Origin: a virus
Lineage: Duplodnaviria > Caudoviricetes
IMG/VR virus record: IMGVR_UViG_3300035424_000154
Location: 1-64,000 of that record
Length of the DNA stretch: 64,000 nucleotides
Strand: one strand, 5' to 3'
Made by a program: the position numbers and the translations under genes. The notes beneath the pieces are model-generated. The model was not told the origin of the DNA. It saw only the letters and a list, made by a program, of their open reading frames with translations, and did not search any database. Below, piece after piece: positions 6,753 through 45,833 of the stretch (position 1 is its first letter; every line of letters starts with the position of its first letter).

Positions 6753-7013
6753 ATGAAAAAAGTGTATCATGTTTACCGTTCCACCAAAACCAGAAAAACC
6801 GTCGTCGTTGGTGATTTTGAGACGCTGGCGGAGGCGCAGGAGGCTATGCTGGCCCATTACAAGAGCACTCCCAAGCGTGGAAAGTTCTGGTATGCGATTA
6901 GCGAGGACAATTTGCGCGAGATCGACGGCGTGATGTTCCGGGAGACGTGCTATGACGGCCAAACCTATCACAAGACTTTCCAGATGGATGAGCTGAAAGC
7001 CCTGGCGGAGTAA
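6753..7013 (+). CDS. Hypothetical protein (86 aa)
   Basis: Promoter 6689, GGAGG RBS; start moved to ATG 6753. Confidence 0.8.
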   Translation: MKKVYHVYRSTKTRKTVVVGDFETLAEAQEAMLAHYKSTPKRGKFWYAISEDNLREIDGVMFRETCYDGQTYHKTFQMDELKALAE

Positions 7014-7128
7014 ATACGGAGCGGCGGAGAATAAAAACTCCGCCGCTTTTTTATGGATGGTTAGCAAATACGCATTTCATTCTGTAAATATAGTAGAAAC
7101 CCCAAAACAACATAATGGAGGTAAGATC

Positions 7129-7302
7129 ATGCGCGTTGTAATTTGTATGCCCACGGGCAAAGACGGGATTCAGGATGATTTGATTATTCGGGATTCCCTG
7201 CTGACGGTTGTAAACCGTATCACGCTACTGGACGAAAAGAGTGGCGAGTTTGAGGCCGATAACGATAAGAATATGGTCACGTTCAAAGTTGAGGAGGTGT
7301 AA
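7129..7302 (+). CDS. Hypothetical protein (57 aa)
   Basis: Promoter 7059, GGAGG RBS, ATG 7129. Confidence 0.75.
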   Translation: MRVVICMPTGKDGIQDDLIIRDSLLTVVNRITLLDEKSGEFEADNDKNMVTFKVEEV

Positions 7303-7305
7303 AGG

Positions 7306-7542
7306 ATGATCGTCAAGAAAATCAAGGGAACGGAAATCAGGCGGTACCGAAACGATAACGGCGACGTGCTGGGCATTGCCGGAACGGTGGAGGAGCTGGA
7401 GCGGGCGGAAATCCTGCTGCATGACGGCGACGGAAAACTTATGCCCACGGATTCCTGGTGCTGCATTGATGACAAGGGAAATATTCTGGATTTTGTCGGC
7501 AGTAGAGAGGCCGCAAAGCTGGTTTTTATGGAATTGTGCTGA
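7306..7542 (+). CDS. Hypothetical protein (78 aa)
   Basis: GGAGG RBS, terminator after. Confidence 0.75.
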   Translation: MIVKKIKGTEIRRYRNDNGDVLGIAGTVEELERAEILLHDGDGKLMPTDSWCCIDDKGNILDFVGSREAAKLVFMELC

Positions 7543-7632
7543 CATTTTGCCTAAGGCGTCCTGGAAACGGGACGCCCATTTTTATTTTCTGTGTGGTTAG
7601 CAAAATTGGAAAATTGCTTGTGATAGTAGTAG

Positions 7633-7670
7633 TGGAGCCGCTGGAATACTGGCGGCAGGCCAAAAGCCCA
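7633..7670 (+). other. Conserved structured 5' leader, copy 2
   Basis: TGGAGCCGCTGGAATACTGGCGGCAGGCCAAAAGCCCA. Confidence 0.55.
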
Positions 7671-7699
7671 CCGAAAATCAAAATAAAGGAGACGAGGGC

Positions 7700-7861
7700 A
7701 TGAAAGAAAACTGGATTGTGTTCTACCATGGTGAACAAGAGCTGAGTGCTTGTACTGTCCGGGGATCATTCCCTGGTGAGATTGCAGCGACAAAGGAGCT
7801 GCTGGCCTATGAAAATGGCATCCCCTGTGAGTCCATCCGAGTGGAAGTAGAAAGCCGATGA
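7700..7861 (+). CDS. Hypothetical protein (53 aa, MKENWIVFYHGE...)
   Basis: Below ORF-track cut-off; AAGGAG RBS, promoter 7595. Confidence 0.7.
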   Translation: MKENWIVFYHGEQELSACTVRGSFPGEIAATKELLAYENGIPCESIRVEVESR

Positions 7862-8019
7862 GATACTTTCTTCTGGATGGTACAGAAATCACTGAGGAGG
7901 AGGCCAAACGCATTGAAGCCCAAAACCGGGAGATTTTAGAGGATGGTACGGTGGAGGAGCTTTTGCAAATTCGACACATTATCATAAGGAGGAATAATCA
8001 TTGCTTTGAGGAGCTATAA
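7858..8019 (+). CDS. Hypothetical protein (53 aa, MRYFLLDGTEIT...)
   Basis: ATGA overlap with previous gene; terminator follows. Confidence 0.65.
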   Translation: MRYFLLDGTEITEEEAKRIEAQNREILEDGTVEELLQIRHIIIRRNNHCFEEL

Positions 8020-8143
8020 ACCGTGGGGCGTTCTGGAAACGGAGCGCCCCATATTTTATTTTTTTAGCATGGTTAGCAGGGATTATATATCATCTGTATA
8101 TATAGTGTAGGAACTCAAAAACAACATAATGGAGGTAAAGAAA

Positions 8144-8539
8144 ATGGCTTTAATTGAAATGTATGTGTCTGATAGCTTGTACTTGGATGCGGAGAGAATC
8201 ACCGACAAGGTGTATATTGTCCACCTCTCCAATGGCAAGGAGATCAGGGTTGAGAAAGAACCGGAGTACAACGGAGATACTTGGGCGTGGAAAGTGGATA
8301 GTCAGGTGTTCAGCCGTGATGATTATGCCCTGTCTTATCTCAAGGAGATTGTGGTGGAAAAACTGACCGGCAAGCGCATTATACTCCATGCAAAAAAGGA
8401 AGTTCCTGATATTTGTGGAGTGGAGGGCCGTGCCTGCCGTGCTAAGGGGAAATGCAATACGGCGCTGTGTTCATTTTGTCCTGTGGCGGAGAAGTTCGAG
8501 GCTGACCGGGATGGAGTCGAGTTAATATATGCAGTTTAA
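8144..8539 (+). CDS. Hypothetical protein with Cys-rich C-terminus
   Basis: Promoter 8071, GGAGG RBS; C-x5-C...C-x4-C-x2-C cluster. Confidence 0.8.
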   Translation: MALIEMYVSDSLYLDAERITDKVYIVHLSNGKEIRVEKEPEYNGDTWAWKVDSQVFSRDDYALSYLKEIVVEKLTGKRIILHAKKEVPDICGVEGRACRAKGKCNTALCSFCPVAEKFEADRDGVELIYAV

Positions 8540-9550: not shown

Positions 9551-9637
9551 TATGGGGAGGGGAGAAATCTTCTCCCCTTTTCCTTTAGGTTAGCAAAATT
9601 TCAAAAGCGTTTGTATATATAGTGGGAGGTGTCAAAA

Positions 9638-9934
9638 ATGACAAAAGCAACTGAAATTTGTAGCGCTGTGGAGCAGGCGCTGGCTGTTGGCCGAACGGTG
9701 TATATCACCGATGCAACGGAGACGCGCAAGGTTGTCAGTGTGGAATTTCTGGCGGCAAATTCATATCGCAAATTTGATGAGCAGTCGCTGAACGTCTTGG
9801 CTGATTATGGAAACGGCGAGACAAAACCATGGGAAATCGTGGTGACATGGCCTTGGGACGAGCTGGATGGCTGGGCGCTGGAAGAAGTAGACGGAGACTT
9901 GTTTATTGCACCGGAATGGTGGTTGAAACTATGA
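9638..9934 (+). CDS. Hypothetical acidic protein (98 aa)
   Basis: Promoter 9588, GGAGG RBS. Confidence 0.8.
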   Translation: MTKATEICSAVEQALAVGRTVYITDATETRKVVSVEFLAANSYRKFDEQSLNVLADYGNGETKPWEIVVTWPWDELDGWALEEVDGDLFIAPEWWLKL

Positions 9935-30902: not shown

Positions 30903-30993
30903 GGAGGGGTAAGCCTAATTGGTAAGGCCCCGGTTTGCTAAACCGGCAGTAACCCGAAAGGGCGTATGGGTTCGAGTCCCATCCCCTTCGCCA
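30903..30993 (+). tRNA. tRNA-Ser(GCT)
   Basis: Cloverleaf with CCGGT-TTGCTAA-ACCGG, long variable arm, GGTTCGAGTCC T arm, G73, encoded CCA. Confidence 0.95.
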
Positions 30994-31952: not shown

Positions 31953-31958
31953 TCATAT

Positions 31959-32033
31959 GCCACTGTAGCTCAGTTGGTAGAGCGCTGCAAGACAATGTTC
32001 AGGCCGTCATTGGTTCGAGTCCAATCAGTGGCA
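31959..32033 (+). ncRNA. tRNA-like RNA with degenerate anticodon arm
   Basis: Acceptor GCCACTG/CAGTGGC, perfect D and T arms, no U33-type 7-nt loop. Confidence 0.75.
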
Positions 32034-32214
32034 AGTTAATTTTTCACGAAGATGCAATCGCCAGCGTTGTGTCGGGAGTAAGTGGCTGGAAGTCCTCGAA
32101 GTACAAGGGGCCGTCTAAGGGTGTTCAGCAAAGGACGTAAAATAAGTGTAGTAACCGTGCAAATCGGAACGTCTGGGAAGTGTGCTACTCCCACCTGTGA
32201 GAGCCAGGATTATA

Positions 32215-38720: not shown

Positions 38721-38828
38721 ATGGAGGGCGTTATCATTCCAATCGTGGTGTTGGGGCTGTTGTTCATACTGACAAGATCGAATGATGACGACAATAACGG
38801 GAATTGGGGAGGTGGGTGTTTTGCATAG
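38721..38828 (+). CDS. Small membrane peptide (35 aa)
   Basis: MEGVIIPIVVLGLLFILTRSNDDD...; follows the previous stop closely. Confidence 0.5.
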   Translation: MEGVIIPIVVLGLLFILTRSNDDDNNGNWGGGCFA

Positions 38829-39759
38829 TCGAGAGCAATTAGAAGAAATGCAGCGCCTACCTCTTTCCCGTAAAATCCAGATCACCACGGCCAGAATTAT
38901 TGAGTGGTACCAACACTACGATGGCAAGGTTTATGTGGCTTTTTCTGGCGGCAAGGACTCAACAGTTCTCCTTGATATTGTACGGCGCATCTATCCTGAT
39001 GTGCCAGCAGTATTTTCGGACACTGGATTGGAGTTTCCAGAAGTTAGAGCATTTGCCAGGAGTTGCGAAAATGTCACCATTATCAAACCTGAGATGAATT
39101 TCCGGCAGGTCATTGAGAAGTACGGATACCCTGTTGTTTCTAAACGTGTGGCTGACGCCGTGAAATACGGTCATAAGCCAGGGTCTTTTCGCTGGAAGGA
39201 GCTACATGGCGAAATTATGCGGAGCAACGGGACTCCTTCAGAGTTCAACTGTGAGAAATGGTGCTATCTGCTCAACGCACCCTTTAAGGTGTCTGCTCGG
39301 TGTTGTGCCGTCATGAAAAAGCGGCCTATGAAGAAATATTCCAAAGAAACCGGGCGAGTGCCTATCATTGCGACAATGGCAGACGAAAGCCGATCCCGTC
39401 GTGCTACTTGGTTGCGTTTGGGGTGTAACGCTTTTGCTGCCAAAAAGCCCAGCTCTCAACCTATGTCATTCTGGACTGAGGACGATGTACTTGAATATCT
39501 CTATACCTACAAAATTCCCTATGCCTCGGTTTATGGCGAGATCGTCAAGACTGACGGGGGGGGGTGGACAACAACCGGAGAAAAACGTACTGGTTGTGTC
39601 TTTTGTGCCTTTGGTGCTCATTTGGAAAAGGCTCCAAACCGTTTCCAGCGACTAAAGGTTACTCACCCGAAACTCTGGAATTATTGTATGAAGCCATGGG
39701 AAGAACATGGCTTGGGTATGCGGCGAGTGCTTGAGTACATTGGAGTCCCAATAGAATAA
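38821..39759 (+). CDS. PAPS-reductase-family (PP-loop, Fe-S) protein
   Basis: AFSGGKDS, SDTGLEFPE, CC, RTGCVFC; start uncertain. Confidence 0.85.
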   Translation: MHSREQLEEMQRLPLSRKIQITTARIIEWYQHYDGKVYVAFSGGKDSTVLLDIVRRIYPDVPAVFSDTGLEFPEVRAFARSCENVTIIKPEMNFRQVIEKYGYPVVSKRVADAVKYGHKPGSFRWKELHGEIMRSNGTPSEFNCEKWCYLLNAPFKVSARCCAVMKKRPMKKYSKETGRVPIIATMADESRSRRATWLRLGCNAFAAKKPSSQPMSFWTEDDVLEYLYTYKIPYASVYGEIVKTDGGGWTTTGEKRTGCVFCAFGAHLEKAPNRFQRLKVTHPKLWNYCMKPWEEHGLGMRRVLEYIGVPIE

Positions 39760-41388: not shown

Positions 41389-42219
41389 ATGATGGTTGTG
41401 GTCGGTATGAAGCACATCGTTTGTTTTTCTGGCGGTCATTCATCTGCGATTGCCGCCGTGGAAGTAGTCAGAAAGTACGGGGCAGAGAACACGATTTTAC
41501 TCAATCATGATCTTTGTCCCCGTACCGAAGACAAAGACATCAAGCGTTTCAAAAATGAGGTTGCGGATTATCTGGGCGTTCCTATCACATACGCCAATAT
41601 GCCCGGATGGGAAACCAAAGATCAGTTTGATGTGTGCATGGAGATCAAAGCGTTCAAGTGCGGCGCACAGTCTACCGCTCTCTGCACCAATAGGCTGAAA
41701 ACTGAGCCATTCCATAAATGGCTTGCTGAGCATTATCCCGCAAATCCTCCAGAAATCCGAGACGACATTTCCTTGGTATACGGTTTTGATGCCAATGAGC
41801 AGCACCGCATCCGGCGTAGAGTCGGCATCATGGCTGCTATGGGTTATCAGACTGAGTATCCGTTGACTTGGGAAACGAGAACGATCTATGAGATTGAAGA
41901 GGTTGGGATTGATCGTCCAAAACCTTACAGCATTTTCAACCATGCAAATTGTACCGGTTGCCTAAAAGCTGGTAAACAACACTGGTTTATTGTGTATTGC
42001 CTCTACCCTGAGATATGGGCAAAGGCAAAGCAAGCTGAGGATGCAATCGGGTACAGTATTCTAAAGCAAGGTTTTCTTTCAGAATTTGAGGCGGAATTTG
42101 CCAAGCTCAAAGAAAAGGCGTTGCCGCCCACTGAAAAAACCAAACCTCAAAAATTCTGGGCAGTCGCACGGAAGCTCATTAAAGATGATGATAACCTACC
42201 GTGTGAGTGCTCATTCTGA
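41389..42219 (+). CDS. Second PAPS-reductase/PP-loop-like protein
   Basis: CFSGGHSSA, CTNRLK, YGFDANE, HANCTGCLK; start may be ATG 41407. Confidence 0.8.
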   Translation: MMVVVGMKHIVCFSGGHSSAIAAVEVVRKYGAENTILLNHDLCPRTEDKDIKRFKNEVADYLGVPITYANMPGWETKDQFDVCMEIKAFKCGAQSTALCTNRLKTEPFHKWLAEHYPANPPEIRDDISLVYGFDANEQHRIRRRVGIMAAMGYQTEYPLTWETRTIYEIEEVGIDRPKPYSIFNHANCTGCLKAGKQHWFIVYCLYPEIWAKAKQAEDAIGYSILKQGFLSEFEAEFAKLKEKALPPTEKTKPQKFWAVARKLIKDDDNLPCECSF

Positions 42220-42232
42220 AGGAGTGATTACG

Positions 42233-42790
42233 ATGAAAGTTCTTGTGATCGTAGATATGCAGAACGATTTCATTGATGGTGCCCTTGGGACGCCGGCAGC
42301 ACAGGCTATTGTTGATAACGTCGTTAAGAAAATCGACCAGTTTGATGGCGACGCAATCTACATTACCAAGGATACGCACCAGCGCAATTATCTGGAGACT
42401 CAGGAGGGCAAGTTGCTCCCTGTTGAGCACTGTATTGAGGAGACGGCGGGATGGAGACTCCACGATGCTGTGGCTACGGCTGTCAGCCATGCGGCTATTG
42501 ACTTTCACAAAGGTGTGTCGGTATTCCAGAAGGACACTTTCGCCTCTGTTGATCTGGGCGAGTGCCTGGATACTCTTTCTCAGCGGCAGCGTGTAGATGA
42601 GGTGGTTGTGATTGGCCTCTGCACCGATATCTGTGTTATTTCCAACGCTTTGCTTATCAAAGCGTTTCTGCCAGAGGTGAAGATCACTGTTGATGCTGCC
42701 TGCTGTGCTGGTGTAACCCCTGAAAGCCATGCCAATGCTTTGGTCGCTATGAAGGTGTGCCAGATCAATGTGGAGAACTGGGAGGGCTGA
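42233..42790 (+). CDS. pncA: Nicotinamidase (isochorismatase family)
   Basis: VIVDMQNDF, TKDTH, HCI..T.GW, KDTF, GLCTDICV. Confidence 0.9.
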   Translation: MKVLVIVDMQNDFIDGALGTPAAQAIVDNVVKKIDQFDGDAIYITKDTHQRNYLETQEGKLLPVEHCIEETAGWRLHDAVATAVSHAAIDFHKGVSVFQKDTFASVDLGECLDTLSQRQRVDEVVVIGLCTDICVISNALLIKAFLPEVKITVDAACCAGVTPESHANALVAMKVCQINVENWEG

Positions 42791-42791
42791 G

Positions 42792-43586
42792 ATGTTTACG
42801 GTAAATGGTGAAAAGCTCTCCCCTACATCCTTCCCAGACAAAACCTGCTCTTTGCGGCTTTACGCAAGAGACGACGCTTACAAGATTGACTGGAAGTATG
42901 ATGGCGACCACGAGTGTATGTTGCTTTGGAACCTTGTTCATCATATCCGGGCCAACAATGGGGAGAATACTCCAATCGGGCTGTATATGCCATATGTGCC
43001 CAATGCGCGTATGGATCGTGTGAAAAACTGCGATGAGGTTTTCACCCTCAAATGGTTTGCGGAGTTTATCAACAGCCTGCATTTCTCCTATGTCCAAGTA
43101 TTTGATCCCCATTCTAATGTCTCTGAGGCTTTGATTAACCATGTCGAGACTATTGCAGCCCATGACTGTATTGAGTCGGTGATCGACGAACTGAACGGCA
43201 AGCGCAACATGAATGTTTTGCTGTGCTACCCCGACGAGGGTGCAGCCAAGCGGTACTCTGCTATGTTCCAGATGGACTATGTGTTCTGTATCAAGCACCG
43301 CGATTGGCGTACCGGCAAAATTGAGCGTTTGGAGCTGACTGACTCATGGAAGGTTGTTGGGCAGAACGTTTTGATCGTAGATGATATTTGCTCTCGTGGC
43401 GGTACGTTCACCCATACCGCTAAGGCTTTGAAAGAGGCTGGGGCAAAAGAAATCTTCCTTTATGTCAGCCATTGTGAAAACACCATTTTGCAAGGTGATG
43501 TGCTGACAGACGGCATGATCTCCCGCGTGTTCACTACCAGTAGTATCCTTCGCGCTTCCCATGAAAAAATCTCCATCATTGACTGA
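42792..43586 (+). CDS. Ribose-phosphate pyrophosphokinase-like protein (Adps candidate)
   Basis: MPYVPNARMDR, YPDEGAAKRY, IVDDICSRGGTF. Confidence 0.9.
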   Translation: MFTVNGEKLSPTSFPDKTCSLRLYARDDAYKIDWKYDGDHECMLLWNLVHHIRANNGENTPIGLYMPYVPNARMDRVKNCDEVFTLKWFAEFINSLHFSYVQVFDPHSNVSEALINHVETIAAHDCIESVIDELNGKRNMNVLLCYPDEGAAKRYSAMFQMDYVFCIKHRDWRTGKIERLELTDSWKVVGQNVLIVDDICSRGGTFTHTAKALKEAGAKEIFLYVSHCENTILQGDVLTDGMISRVFTTSSILRASHEKISIID

Positions 43587-43602
43587 AAGAGGGTATCAAA
43601 CA

Positions 43603-45099
43603 ATGATTTCATACAATCCTTTGCTGTGCCTGGACTTCTATAAGACAGCGCACGCGGAGCAGTATCCTGAAACGCTGACCAAAATGGTATCCTACTACAC
43701 GCCCCGTATGACCCGCCTGCCTGACGTGAATAAGATCACGATGTTTGGTTTGCAGGCGTTTATTCAGGAATACCTGATTGAGGCGTTCAACACCTACTTT
43801 TTCAACCGTCCTCTCGGCGAGGTTATGAAAGAGTACGTTCGGATTCTGGGCTGTACCATTGGCACAGTTGGTGTTGGCTATGGTCGTGTGAAAGCGCTTC
43901 ACGAGTTGGGCTACCTGCCCCTTATGATTCGTGCTGTGCCGGAGGGTACTCGCACCGACATCCATGTCCCGCAAATCGAAATCTCGAATACCAACCCCCA
44001 CTTTGTCTGGTTGGTCAACAGCATTGAAACTATGCTGTCCTGCTCCATGTGGCACACTCAGATCTCAGCTGAGGTGGGATACCGTTATCGGCAGATTGTC
44101 AACGAGTTTGCTGATATCACCTGCGACGACAGCGTGGTGCGGGCAAAGCTCCTGGGCGACTTTTCTATGCGTGGTCAGGAAAGTGTTGAGAGCGCCACCA
44201 AGAGTTCTGCTGCATTCTGCCTGAGCTTTTTGAATACGGCCACTGTGCCGGCCATCCTCTGGCTGGAAAAGAATTATGCCTGCCGTGTTGAGAATGAGCC
44301 TGTGGCTTACGGTGCTCTGTCCACTGAGCATAGTGTCATGTGTTCCAACTACGCTGTGGACGGTGATGAGGTAACACACATCAAGCGTCTGTTGAAAGAG
44401 GTTTATCCGCACCAGAACTTCTCTATGGTCAGTGACAGCTATGACTACTGGAACCTGGTAGACAATATTCTTCCTCAGATCAAGGACGACGTTCTGGCAC
44501 ATGATGGGTGTCTCGCCGTTCGTGGAGATAGTGGCGACCCCGTAGAGGTCGTAACTAAGACCGTGTTCAAACTGTGGGATATCTTTGGCGGCACTGTAAA
44601 CAGCAAGGGCTACAAAGTTCTTGATCCGCACGTTAAGGCACTCTATGGTGATAGTATTACTCCACAGCGCTGCGAGGCGATCTATCAGATTCTCATGGAG
44701 CGTGGGTTCGCTATCGACAACGTCTCGTTGGGTGTTGGTTCCTTCTCCATGCAGTGTCTGGAGACAACGGACGGTAATAGCAAGGCTTATGCGCCTTATA
44801 CCCGTGATACCTTTGGCATCGCTGTCAAGGCTACTTATGCTGAGGATTATAAGGGCAAGCCCATTATGATTTACAAGAATCCCAAGACCGATAGCAGTCA
44901 TTTTAAGAAGTCCCAGCGTGGGTGTTGCCGTGTTATATATGACTTCCACAGCGACACCTATCAGTACCAAGATGGTTTGACATGGGCGCAGGCTAATATG
45001 CCTGGAAACTGGCTGGTCCCCGTGTTCAAAAACGGCCAGATGCTCCGTGTTTTTACCTTGGGCGAGGTACGCAAAAATCTCCATGGAGGTGAGTTTTAA
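43603..45099 (+). CDS. Nicotinamide/nicotinate phosphoribosyltransferase, Nampt fold (Namat candidate)
   Basis: DFYK, DFSMRG, STEHSV, SDSYDYW, RGDSGDP, YGDSIT. Confidence 0.9.
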   Translation: MISYNPLLCLDFYKTAHAEQYPETLTKMVSYYTPRMTRLPDVNKITMFGLQAFIQEYLIEAFNTYFFNRPLGEVMKEYVRILGCTIGTVGVGYGRVKALHELGYLPLMIRAVPEGTRTDIHVPQIEISNTNPHFVWLVNSIETMLSCSMWHTQISAEVGYRYRQIVNEFADITCDDSVVRAKLLGDFSMRGQESVESATKSSAAFCLSFLNTATVPAILWLEKNYACRVENEPVAYGALSTEHSVMCSNYAVDGDEVTHIKRLLKEVYPHQNFSMVSDSYDYWNLVDNILPQIKDDVLAHDGCLAVRGDSGDPVEVVTKTVFKLWDIFGGTVNSKGYKVLDPHVKALYGDSITPQRCEAIYQILMERGFAIDNVSLGVGSFSMQCLETTDGNSKAYAPYTRDTFGIAVKATYAEDYKGKPIMIYKNPKTDSSHFKKSQRGCCRVIYDFHSDTYQYQDGLTWAQANMPGNWLVPVFKNGQMLRVFTLGEVRKNLHGGEF

Positions 45100-45833
45100 T
45101 GTTGTCCGATCCGAAGCGAACCAAGGATGAGATTGTCAAGTGGATTCGTGACTATTTCAATGTGAACGGCCCCAACTGTGACGCTGTGATTGGCATTTCT
45201 GGTGGCAAAGATTCGAGTGTCGTCGCTGCTCTCTGTGTTGAAGCTCTAGGGAAGGAAAGAGTAGTTGGCGTCCTTATGCCGTGTGGGGAGCAGGCTGATA
45301 TCGAGGACAGTAAACGGATCGTGGAGCATCTTGGTATCCGGTCGTATCTGGTAAATATCCAGAGTCCTGTTGACTCCATTTTGTTCAGACTCCGTATTAA
45401 AATGGACGTTAGTGAGCAGACAAAAACGAACCTGCCTGCTCGTATCCGCATGGCTACACTCTATGCTGTTGCTCAGTCTCTTTCTAATGGTGGGCGGGTA
45501 GCTAATACCTGTAATCGCTCTGAAGACTTTGTGGGGTACTCTACGAAATTTGGTGACAGCGCCGGAGATTTCAGCCCTCTTGCTAATCTTATGGTGCATG
45601 AAGTGATCCAAATTGGCTATGAGCTGGGGATTCCTGTTGACTTGGTGGATAAGGTTCCGTCTGACGGCCTGTGCGGTAAGACAGATGAAGATAACCTTGG
45701 CTTTACCTATGCCCAGCTTGATAATTATATCAGCAAAGGTACGTCCGGTTCTATGGATATCGACAAGAGAATTTCCGACCTACACGCCCACAACCTTCAC
45801 AAGCTCACTCCTATGCCTATGTACTGTTTTTGA
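45099..45833 (+). CDS. nadE: NH3-dependent NAD+ synthetase
   Basis: GISGGKDS, NLPARIRM, GYSTKFGD, PSDGL; no glutaminase domain. Confidence 0.95.
   Translation: MLSDPKRTKDEIVKWIRDYFNVNGPNCDAVIGISGGKDSSVVAALCVEALGKERVVGVLMPCGEQADIEDSKRIVEHLGIRSYLVNIQSPVDSILFRLRIKMDVSEQTKTNLPARIRMATLYAVAQSLSNGGRVANTCNRSEDFVGYSTKFGDSAGDFSPLANLMVHEVIQIGYELGIPVDLVDKVPSDGLCGKTDEDNLGFTYAQLDNYISKGTSGSMDIDKRISDLHAHNLHKLTPMPMYCF

Follow-up and report, generated by a model that had tools for sequence, protein, structure and literature searches.

The IMG/VR virus record IMGVR_UViG_3300035424_000154, a member of the Caudoviricetes, comprises 87,115 bases, of which bases 1-64000 form the stretch analysed here (hereafter the window). 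An earlier interpretation of this DNA from its letters and open reading frames (the sequence-only reading) had described tightly coupled pncA, Prs-like, Nampt-like and nadE genes at 42233-45833, and profile and PHROG searches find the same four co-directional plus-strand genes at that place, where they form a nicotinamide adenine dinucleotide (NAD) cassette. The first encodes a PncA-like nicotinamidase of 185 amino acids (aa; 42233..42790; Pfam PF00857, Isochorismatase, 6e-25). It is followed by an Adps-like Prs homologue (42768..43586, 272 aa; phrog_619, 1e-68), which probably starts at ATG 42792 to give 264 aa, and by a 512-aa Namat-like transferase of what we call the non-Asp ('nicotinate') type (43561..45099; phrog_448, 2e-151), which perhaps starts at ATG 43603. 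The fourth gene encodes a single-domain, NH3-dependent NadE of 244 aa (45099..45833; PF02540, 1.7e-51; TIGR00552). Neighbouring genes are joined by junctions of -1 to 16 nt. AGGAG lies 8 nt upstream of the pncA ATG at 42233, ATG 42792 lies 1 nt past the pncA stop with GGGAGGG ahead of it, 16 nt separate the Adps stop from ATG 43603, and the transferase and nadE meet in a TAATG stop/start overlap with GGAGG upstream. Judged by their spacing and ribosome-binding motifs, these are the junctions of a translationally coupled operon.

Depletion of NAD+ ranks among the most common defences of bacteria against phages, and the principal response known from phages is NARP1. As in the NARP1 systems of SPbetaL1, Bas63 and ICP1, the cassette is phage-borne and an Adps-clade gene adjoins a Namat-clade transferase (bioRxiv 10.1101/2024.02.11.579819; PMC12774641; PMC13586617). 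The Prs-like protein is 41% identical to SPbetaL1 Adps (E 1e-46) and shares phrog_619 with the Adps proteins of both SPbetaL1 and ICP1. Against TIGR01251, the model of phosphoribosyl pyrophosphate (PRPP) synthetase (PRPS), it scores 82 bits, under the cut-off of 113. A PDB sequence search returned only cellular PRPS at about 1e-10, with no ICP1 Adps structure among the matches. Residues of ICP1 Adps that act in catalysis or contact ADP-ribose were mapped from its GenBank record, with their roles taken from PMC13586617, and F18, R87, H121, D161, the catalytic K185, D212 and D213 are all kept in the Prs-like protein, whose PP loop DDICSRGGTF resembles the SPbetaL1 loop DDLSSFGGTF. In a tree rooted on the PRPS of a likely host, the cassette-linked Adps genes fall inside the bracket formed by SPbetaL1 and ICP1; in this tree set they are 40% and 35% identical to the validated Adps of SPbetaL1 and ICP1, respectively, and 23-24% identical to host PRPS. 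SPbetaL1 Adps pyrophosphorylates ADP-ribose (ADPR), and PRPS activity was not seen for it in vitro (bioRxiv 10.1101/2024.02.11.579819, the Osterman preprint). The Prs-like gene is thus predicted to encode an Adps and not a PRPS, converting ADPR and ATP to ADPR pyrophosphate (ADPR-PP) and AMP.

A further profile touches both NARP1 families: phrog_12872 (547 positions) is matched by Adps proteins in its N-terminal part and by Namat proteins in its C-terminal part, which makes it probable that some phages encode fused Adps-Namat proteins.

The transferase has its best PDB sequence matches in SPbetaL1 Namat (9w5w/9w5x, E 3e-117), with human NAMPT at 1e-38. Its AlphaFold model, with a predicted local distance difference test (pLDDT) score of 93.9, superposes on 9w5x with template-modelling (TM) scores of 0.89/0.93 and a root-mean-square deviation of 1.8 A, and superposes less closely on Haemophilus NadV and human NAMPT. 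In its catalytic His/Arg/Asp core the protein agrees with Namat, and the residues D25, Y27, F201, R204, H257, R321 and D323 correspond to Asp13, Tyr15, Phe189, Arg192, His245, Arg306 and Asp308 in Namat numbering (residue roles from PMC12774641). Membership of phrog_448 was dropped as a marker of transferase type, as this family holds both Namat and NARP2-type Nampt. NARP2 itself (Nampt plus an adenylyltransferase, in Vibrio phage KVP40) likewise employs a Nampt-family transferase in phage NAD+ counter-defence. It uses PRPP and nicotinamide and needs a nicotinamide mononucleotide (NMN) adenylyltransferase (NMNAT), whereas the cassette transferase is partnered by Adps in genomes that mostly lack an adenylyltransferase.

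The base pocket of the transferase differs from that of Namat at two positions. Ala227 (codon 44239..44241, plus strand) stands in place of Namat Asp215, equivalent to Asp219 of human NAMPT, in an unambiguous alignment of NTATVP with GTDTIP, and Ser254 (codon 44320..44322, plus strand), which lines the pocket, aligns in place of Namat Ala242 (human Ala244). The Asp hydrogen-bonds the amide of nicotinamide in Namat and human NAMPT (PMC12774641). According to Khan et al. 2006, as cited in PMC7096376, Asp219 sets the substrate specificity of NAMPT, and the mutant listing seen in PMC4919578 gives D219S of the human enzyme as a substrate switch and D219A as a loss of activity. The D219S mutant, for which Khan et al. 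2006 is cited in both PMC4919578 and PMC7096376, thus resembles the cassette enzyme in that the same Asp is swapped and base specificity is altered within a homologous pocket; as described there, it is an engineered single mutant of a PRPP enzyme, whereas the change in the cassette is natural, paired with A242S and fixed in a large clade.

The two remaining proteins belong to families that would act on either side of such a transferase. The PncA-like protein matches the nicotinamidases of S. pneumoniae, M. tuberculosis and P. horikoshii in the PDB at about 1e-10, and alignment to M. tuberculosis and S. pneumoniae PncA shows the Asp-Lys-Cys triad and the Asp/His/His metal site in place; across 82 homologues, each residue of the triad D8/K100/C134 and of the metal site D47/H49/H66 is kept in 80-82. 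It scores 41.4 bits against the NCBIfam PncA equivalog NF008623, under the cut-off of 174, and its PHROG, 19305, carries a function-less label. We regard it as a divergent member of the nicotinamidase family, predicted to convert nicotinamide to nicotinate and NH3. NadE reaches 175.5 bits against TIGR00552 (cut-off 63.65), keeps the SGGxDS P-loop and the other motifs, and lacks a glutaminase domain. Its top PDB match is P. horikoshii NadE (2e-43), followed by Francisella NadE (3fiu, 2e-34), and it shares 52% identity with the NadE that Dysosmobacter segnis encodes on its chromosome. Because that bacterium uses NadD, the phage protein is read, on indirect evidence, as an ordinary amidase of nicotinate adenine dinucleotide (NaAD), predicted to form NAD+ from NaAD, ATP and NH3.

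The pocket residues of the transferase covary with its neighbouring genes. We compared 229 viral loci with flanks, drawn from five viral-contig scans and annotated GenBank records, counting neighbours within 6 kb. Where the transferase carries Ala or Ser at position 215 (Namat numbering) and Ser at 242, NadE is present in 113/113 loci and PncA in 106/113, and six of the seven PncA gaps lie at contig ends or in short flanks. Where it carries Asp or Glu at 215 and Ala at 242, both NadE and PncA are found in 0/116, while Adps is present in nearly all loci of both transferase types. Every related locus with enough flanking DNA has all four genes together, and the cassette is not a chance arrangement. 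The same residue split is seen among the best 150 representatives of clusters at 50% identity, taken from 1.84 billion proteins, in which the 215/242 pairs are D/A in 91, A/S in 33 and S/S in 17, with very few others. The association also holds across large distances: the published gut phage phAss-1 (OQ749652) carries the cassette with a transferase that is 31% identical to that of the window, yet of the A/S type. Its genes are annotated in order as nicotinamidase, ribose-phosphate pyrophosphokinase, nicotinamide phosphoribosyltransferase, hypothetical and hypothetical, and the phAss-1 paper does not discuss the pathway. In P0057, an 865-aa protein of the S/S type found in two assemblies, the transferase and NadE are naturally fused.

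The phAss-1 locus has two peculiarities of its own. A 139-aa gene resembling SIS/phosphoheptose isomerases (phrog_1238, 4e-18; 7555-7974 of locus L086) lies between the transferase and NadE, and the NadE-like protein is longer, at 307 aa.

One might ask whether the cassette is an ordinary NARP1 accompanied by passengers, with the transferase joining nicotinamide to ADPR-PP while PncA and NadE serve other purposes, such as lowering nicotinamide or boosting de novo NAD+ synthesis by the host. The Namat catalytic core and overall fold would fit this, and phage NadE-like genes are known from unrelated cyanophage and pelagiphage sugar-modification clusters. We consider it quite improbable. PncA would consume the transferase's own substrate, and the nicotinamide-binding Asp is lost clade-wide, with human D219A being inactive on nicotinamide according to the PMC4919578 listing. 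Residue state and NadE co-occur in both directions without exception, and the genes are translationally coupled. The cyanophage and pelagiphage NadE-like genes were themselves rejected as relatives of the cassette, as they sit in glycosyl/carbamoyl-transferase (sugar-modification) clusters. Set against the characterized NARP1 systems, the cassette differs in having Ala/Ser for Asp215/Ala242, in having PncA and NadE as obligate companions and, in the subclade of the window, in an insertion in the adenine clamp; the predicted product of its transferase is NaAD, whereas that of NARP1 is NAD+.

Phylogenetic analysis places this variant within NARP1. FastTree was run on sets of 193 and 235 tips, with NARP2-type or T4-like Nampts as the root and without the incomplete Lak-A1 gene. 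In both trees the non-Asp transferases form a single clade, of 71 or 67 tips and with a support of 0.978 or 0.988, that holds zero Asp-type members and has Ala or Ser at position 215 throughout. This clade sits in the smallest clade that holds both SPbetaL1 and ICP1 Namat. The comparison with Adps and Namat for which the sequence-only reading had called puts both cassette proteins inside the SPbetaL1-ICP1 brackets. Because the non-Asp type forms a single clade inside NARP1, the residue switch would have arisen once, in a single ancestral event along with the gain of PncA and NadE, and been kept with both genes since.

The adenine clamp shows a second, younger change. In the transferase of the window, the SCH selectivity-clamp segment (44746..44799, plus strand) holds 19 residues between GS and TRD, compared with 6 in Namat (GS-FSMQCLETTDGNSKAYAPY-TRD versus GS-FTYQYN-TRD), a 13-residue insertion that AlphaFold models as an ordered beta-hairpin (pLDDT about 83-93). 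The clamp residues R52 (Namat R40) and F395 (Namat F392) and the TRD are kept, and the segment departs from the SCH motif GSX-phi-X-phi-X-phi-TRD, the signature that separates Namat from Nampt (PMC12774641). Basal members of the non-Asp clade, among them phAss-1, L155, L156, P0115 and P0025, carry the canonical clamp GS[FY]T[YF]QY[NV]TRD without an insertion; that of phAss-1 (GSYTYQYVTRD) equals the clamp of ICP1, and that of L155 (GSFTYQYNTRD) equals the clamp of SPbetaL1. That basal members have the canonical clamp speaks for a clade ancestor with ADPR-PP binding intact, and the insertion is a later acquisition in the subclade of the window's protein.

Other irregularities among Namat-like genes concern their continuity. 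Many homologues among the best 150 are 587-1114 aa long and match in 2-5 stretches that are interrupted around query residues 250 and 332-340. P0030 has an N-terminal HNH_3/AP2 segment, L012 (6001-7797) has an insertion of about 94 aa, and several Bacillus phage genes (phage matches H2-H8) align in two pieces. These long or split genes look like the products of inteins, homing-endonuclease insertions or introns. In the Prevotella megaphage Lak-A1 (MK250018, L154), the Namat-like gene is split into open reading frames at 6950-8254 and 9581-9916, about 1.3 kb apart, and no Adps, PncA or NadE was found within 7 kb of it.

Copies of the cassette with 82% identity occur in the isolates Dysosmobacter segnis BX15 and Hominicoprocola fusiformis and in metagenome-assembled genomes of Oscillospiraceae and Clostridia, and the hosts are therefore probably gut Oscillospiraceae. 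Both isolates encode their own PRPS, NadD (over cut-off) and NadE. Their sole PF04095 (NAPRTase-family) and sole PF00857 (isochorismatase-family) genes are those of the prophage cassette, so that these hosts apparently lack a nicotinamide or nicotinate salvage of their own, and a lysogen would owe any salvage of pyridine bases to the phage.

This host background bears on the main rival explanation, a phage-boosted Preiss-Handler pathway, in which PncA would supply nicotinate, the transferase would form nicotinate mononucleotide (NaMN) with PRPP that is drawn from the host or made by the Prs-like enzyme, host NadD would convert NaMN to NaAD, and phage NadE would complete NAD+. The cassette shares with the PncA-PncB-NadD-NadE route the deamidation of nicotinamide by PncA, a nicotinate-based intermediate and the final amidation by NadE. 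Both likely hosts, Dysosmobacter and Hominicoprocola, have the NadD that such a route would borrow, and nicotinate phosphoribosyltransferase (NAPRT) activity would be useful to hosts without another PF04095 enzyme. Namat keeps activity with PRPP in vitro (PMC12774641), and the transferase of the window passes the NCBIfam model NF006629, 'nicotinate phosphoribosyltransferase', at 436 bits over a cut-off of 405. With its adenine clamp changed by the insertion, it is especially for this protein that the Preiss-Handler explanation has to be weighed. On the other side, the cassette lacks a PncB-type NAPRT and NadD, and its donor is predicted to be ADPR-PP from Adps, so that the NaMN step would be skipped. 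The transferase is partnered by a member of the Adps clade, not by a PRPS, the SPbetaL1 Adps showed no PRPS activity in vitro (Osterman preprint), and basal members keep the exact adenine-clamp motif. The phage also brings a NadE that the host already owns, yet NadD is present in 0/5 complete genomes, and a direct transferase-NadE fusion exists. We therefore give the Preiss-Handler explanation a small but appreciable probability. The sequence-only reading had offered a classical salvage borrowing host NadD as its second option; the hosts do have NadD, and the option is weakened by the Adps partner, the basal clamps, the absence of NadD from the phages and the fusion.

The earlier statement that the window has no NMN or NaMN adenylyltransferase is correct, but it does not extend to the genome. 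Searched with PF01467, the whole record yields a single match, at 74675-75142, beyond the window; the gene, at about 74.5-75.8 kb, encodes a NadR-like NMN adenylyltransferase/ribosylnicotinamide kinase (TIGR01526, 9e-56) and is followed by a gene for a PnuC-like transporter. The pair, at about 74.5-76.5 kb, resembles NARP3 (PnuC plus NadR, phage Bas30; PMC13464706), and the phage would therefore carry two separate NAD+ modules. NARP3 imports nicotinamide riboside and has nil gene overlap with the four-gene cassette. At about 73580-76515 of the record, the NadR-like and PnuC-like genes stand in a row with a homologue of Thg1-like tRNA-His guanylyltransferase.

The NadR-like gene opens another possible route, of the Francisella kind, in which nicotinate and PRPP would give NaMN, NadE would convert NaMN to NMN, and the NadR-like NMNAT 30 kb away would form NAD+. 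Francisella NadE, the second PDB match of the phage enzyme, is an NMN synthetase (PMC3376133), and the genome does have an NMNAT. This route is unlikely because most cassette-bearing genomes lack an NMNAT: PF01467 adenylyltransferases were found in none of five complete cassette-bearing phage genomes (four that CheckV rates 100% complete, and phAss-1). Moreover, the phage NadE stands nearer to the chromosomal enzyme of the NadD-using host and to archaeal-type NadE, of which the M. jannaschii enzyme is specific for NaAD (PMC3376133), and NadR is paired with PnuC in the NARP3-like module (PMC13464706). We consider the Francisella-like route very improbable.

Together, these comparisons suggest that the four genes probably constitute a 'nicotinate-type', that is deamidated, NARP1 that rebuilds NAD+ through nicotinate and NaAD. 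After a defence NADase has split NAD+ into ADPR and nicotinamide, the PncA-like enzyme would deamidate nicotinamide to nicotinate, and the Adps-like enzyme would convert ADPR and ATP to ADPR-PP. The Namat-like transferase, with Ala/Ser in the base pocket where Namat has Asp/Ala, would then join nicotinate to ADPR-PP, giving NaAD and PPi, and NadE would turn NaAD, ATP and ammonia into NAD+. As in NARP1, which does without an adenylyltransferase, none would be required at any of the four steps. We infer the substrates and products, those of the third step above all, from the gene content, protein families, residues, covariation and phylogeny that were observed. Nicotinate-type NARP1 is the sole reading that has every step encoded by the phage and that calls for the residue switch, PncA and NadE simultaneously. 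The deamidating route that the sequence-only reading had drawn from gene content alone gains support from the lost Asp, the occurrence of NadE with one residue state and not the other (113/113 versus 0/116), the Adps-clade partner, the basal clamps and the fusion. The evidence leans, if only somewhat, towards the more specific statement that the transferase is a nicotinate ADP-ribosyltransferase and that the cassette is a complete, adenylyltransferase-free deamidated NARP1 carried by a large clade of phages and prophages from gut Clostridia.

Several points weigh against this reading. The support for the route is comparative in kind. A single origin of the residue switch means that the 113-to-0 tally reflects one event and long retention and does not amount to 113 independent tests, and the trees do not settle the immediate sister group of the non-Asp clade. 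In human NAMPT, as PMC4919578 lists the mutants, D219A is inactive and only D219S is a switch, and most members of the clade carry Ala. In the clamp of the window's subclade, the second adenine-stacking Tyr is out of register, and the insertion therefore makes a preference for ADPR-PP less secure there than in basal members. Namat accepts PRPP in vitro (PMC12774641, Osterman preprint), so that a side reaction from PRPP to NaMN is possible, and the same genome also encodes the NadR-like NMNAT. Finally, deamidating and then re-amidating the base costs one extra ATP, and the benefit is unexplained. That charged nicotinate would be kept in the cell while nicotinamide diffuses out is one idea, and an inference only. 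The idea that a nicotinamidase of the host explains the use of nicotinate was rejected for these two hosts, as their only isochorismatase-family genes are prophage-borne.

In full-text searches, no paper turned up that connects NARP1, Adps or Namat to NadE, to nicotinamidase or to NaAD, and the enzyme reaction of nicotinate with ADPR-PP to NaAD was not found in published papers. From its genes and residues, the cassette is most likely a previously undescribed variant of NARP1, which would imply a new enzyme reaction.

The surroundings of the cassette are phage-like, with genes for a LemA-like virion protein, PAPS-reductase-like proteins and DNA methyltransferases. Between 38.5 and 47.5 kb, 13 promoter-like sites stand against a shuffled expectation of 12.6 and 14 terminator-like sites against 6.7, the latter somewhat enriched, and no convincing operon boundary was found among them. 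Megablast of the cluster against phage records gave no match, hence no close phage relative there. Upstream of the cassette, two PAPS-reductase-like genes (phrog_424; 38782-39759 and 41389-42219) flank LemA-like and phrog_3886 genes, and the two are conserved, at 84-98% identity, among close relatives and in the prophage copy of Dysosmobacter. Elsewhere in the window, ARAGORN calls a tRNA-like element with a four-base anticodon (acaa) at 31958-32034, adjoined by a tRNA-Ser at 30903-30993.

If the nicotinate-type reading is true, the cassette adds a new reaction, in which nicotinate and ADPR-PP give NaAD directly, and a fourth means by which phages restore NAD+. It would also mean that changing two residues of the base pocket redirected a pathway and brought in two more enzymes, and it would identify the predominant form of NARP1 among phages that infect gut Oscillospiraceae and related Clostridia. 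For annotation, TDT versus T[AS]T, together with A versus S before EHS, would serve as a marker for genes now labelled 'nicotinamide/nicotinate phosphoribosyltransferase' and 'ribose-phosphate pyrophosphokinase'. The extra ATP spent on the nicotinate route may in turn point to an unrecognised constraint or to a host counter-measure.

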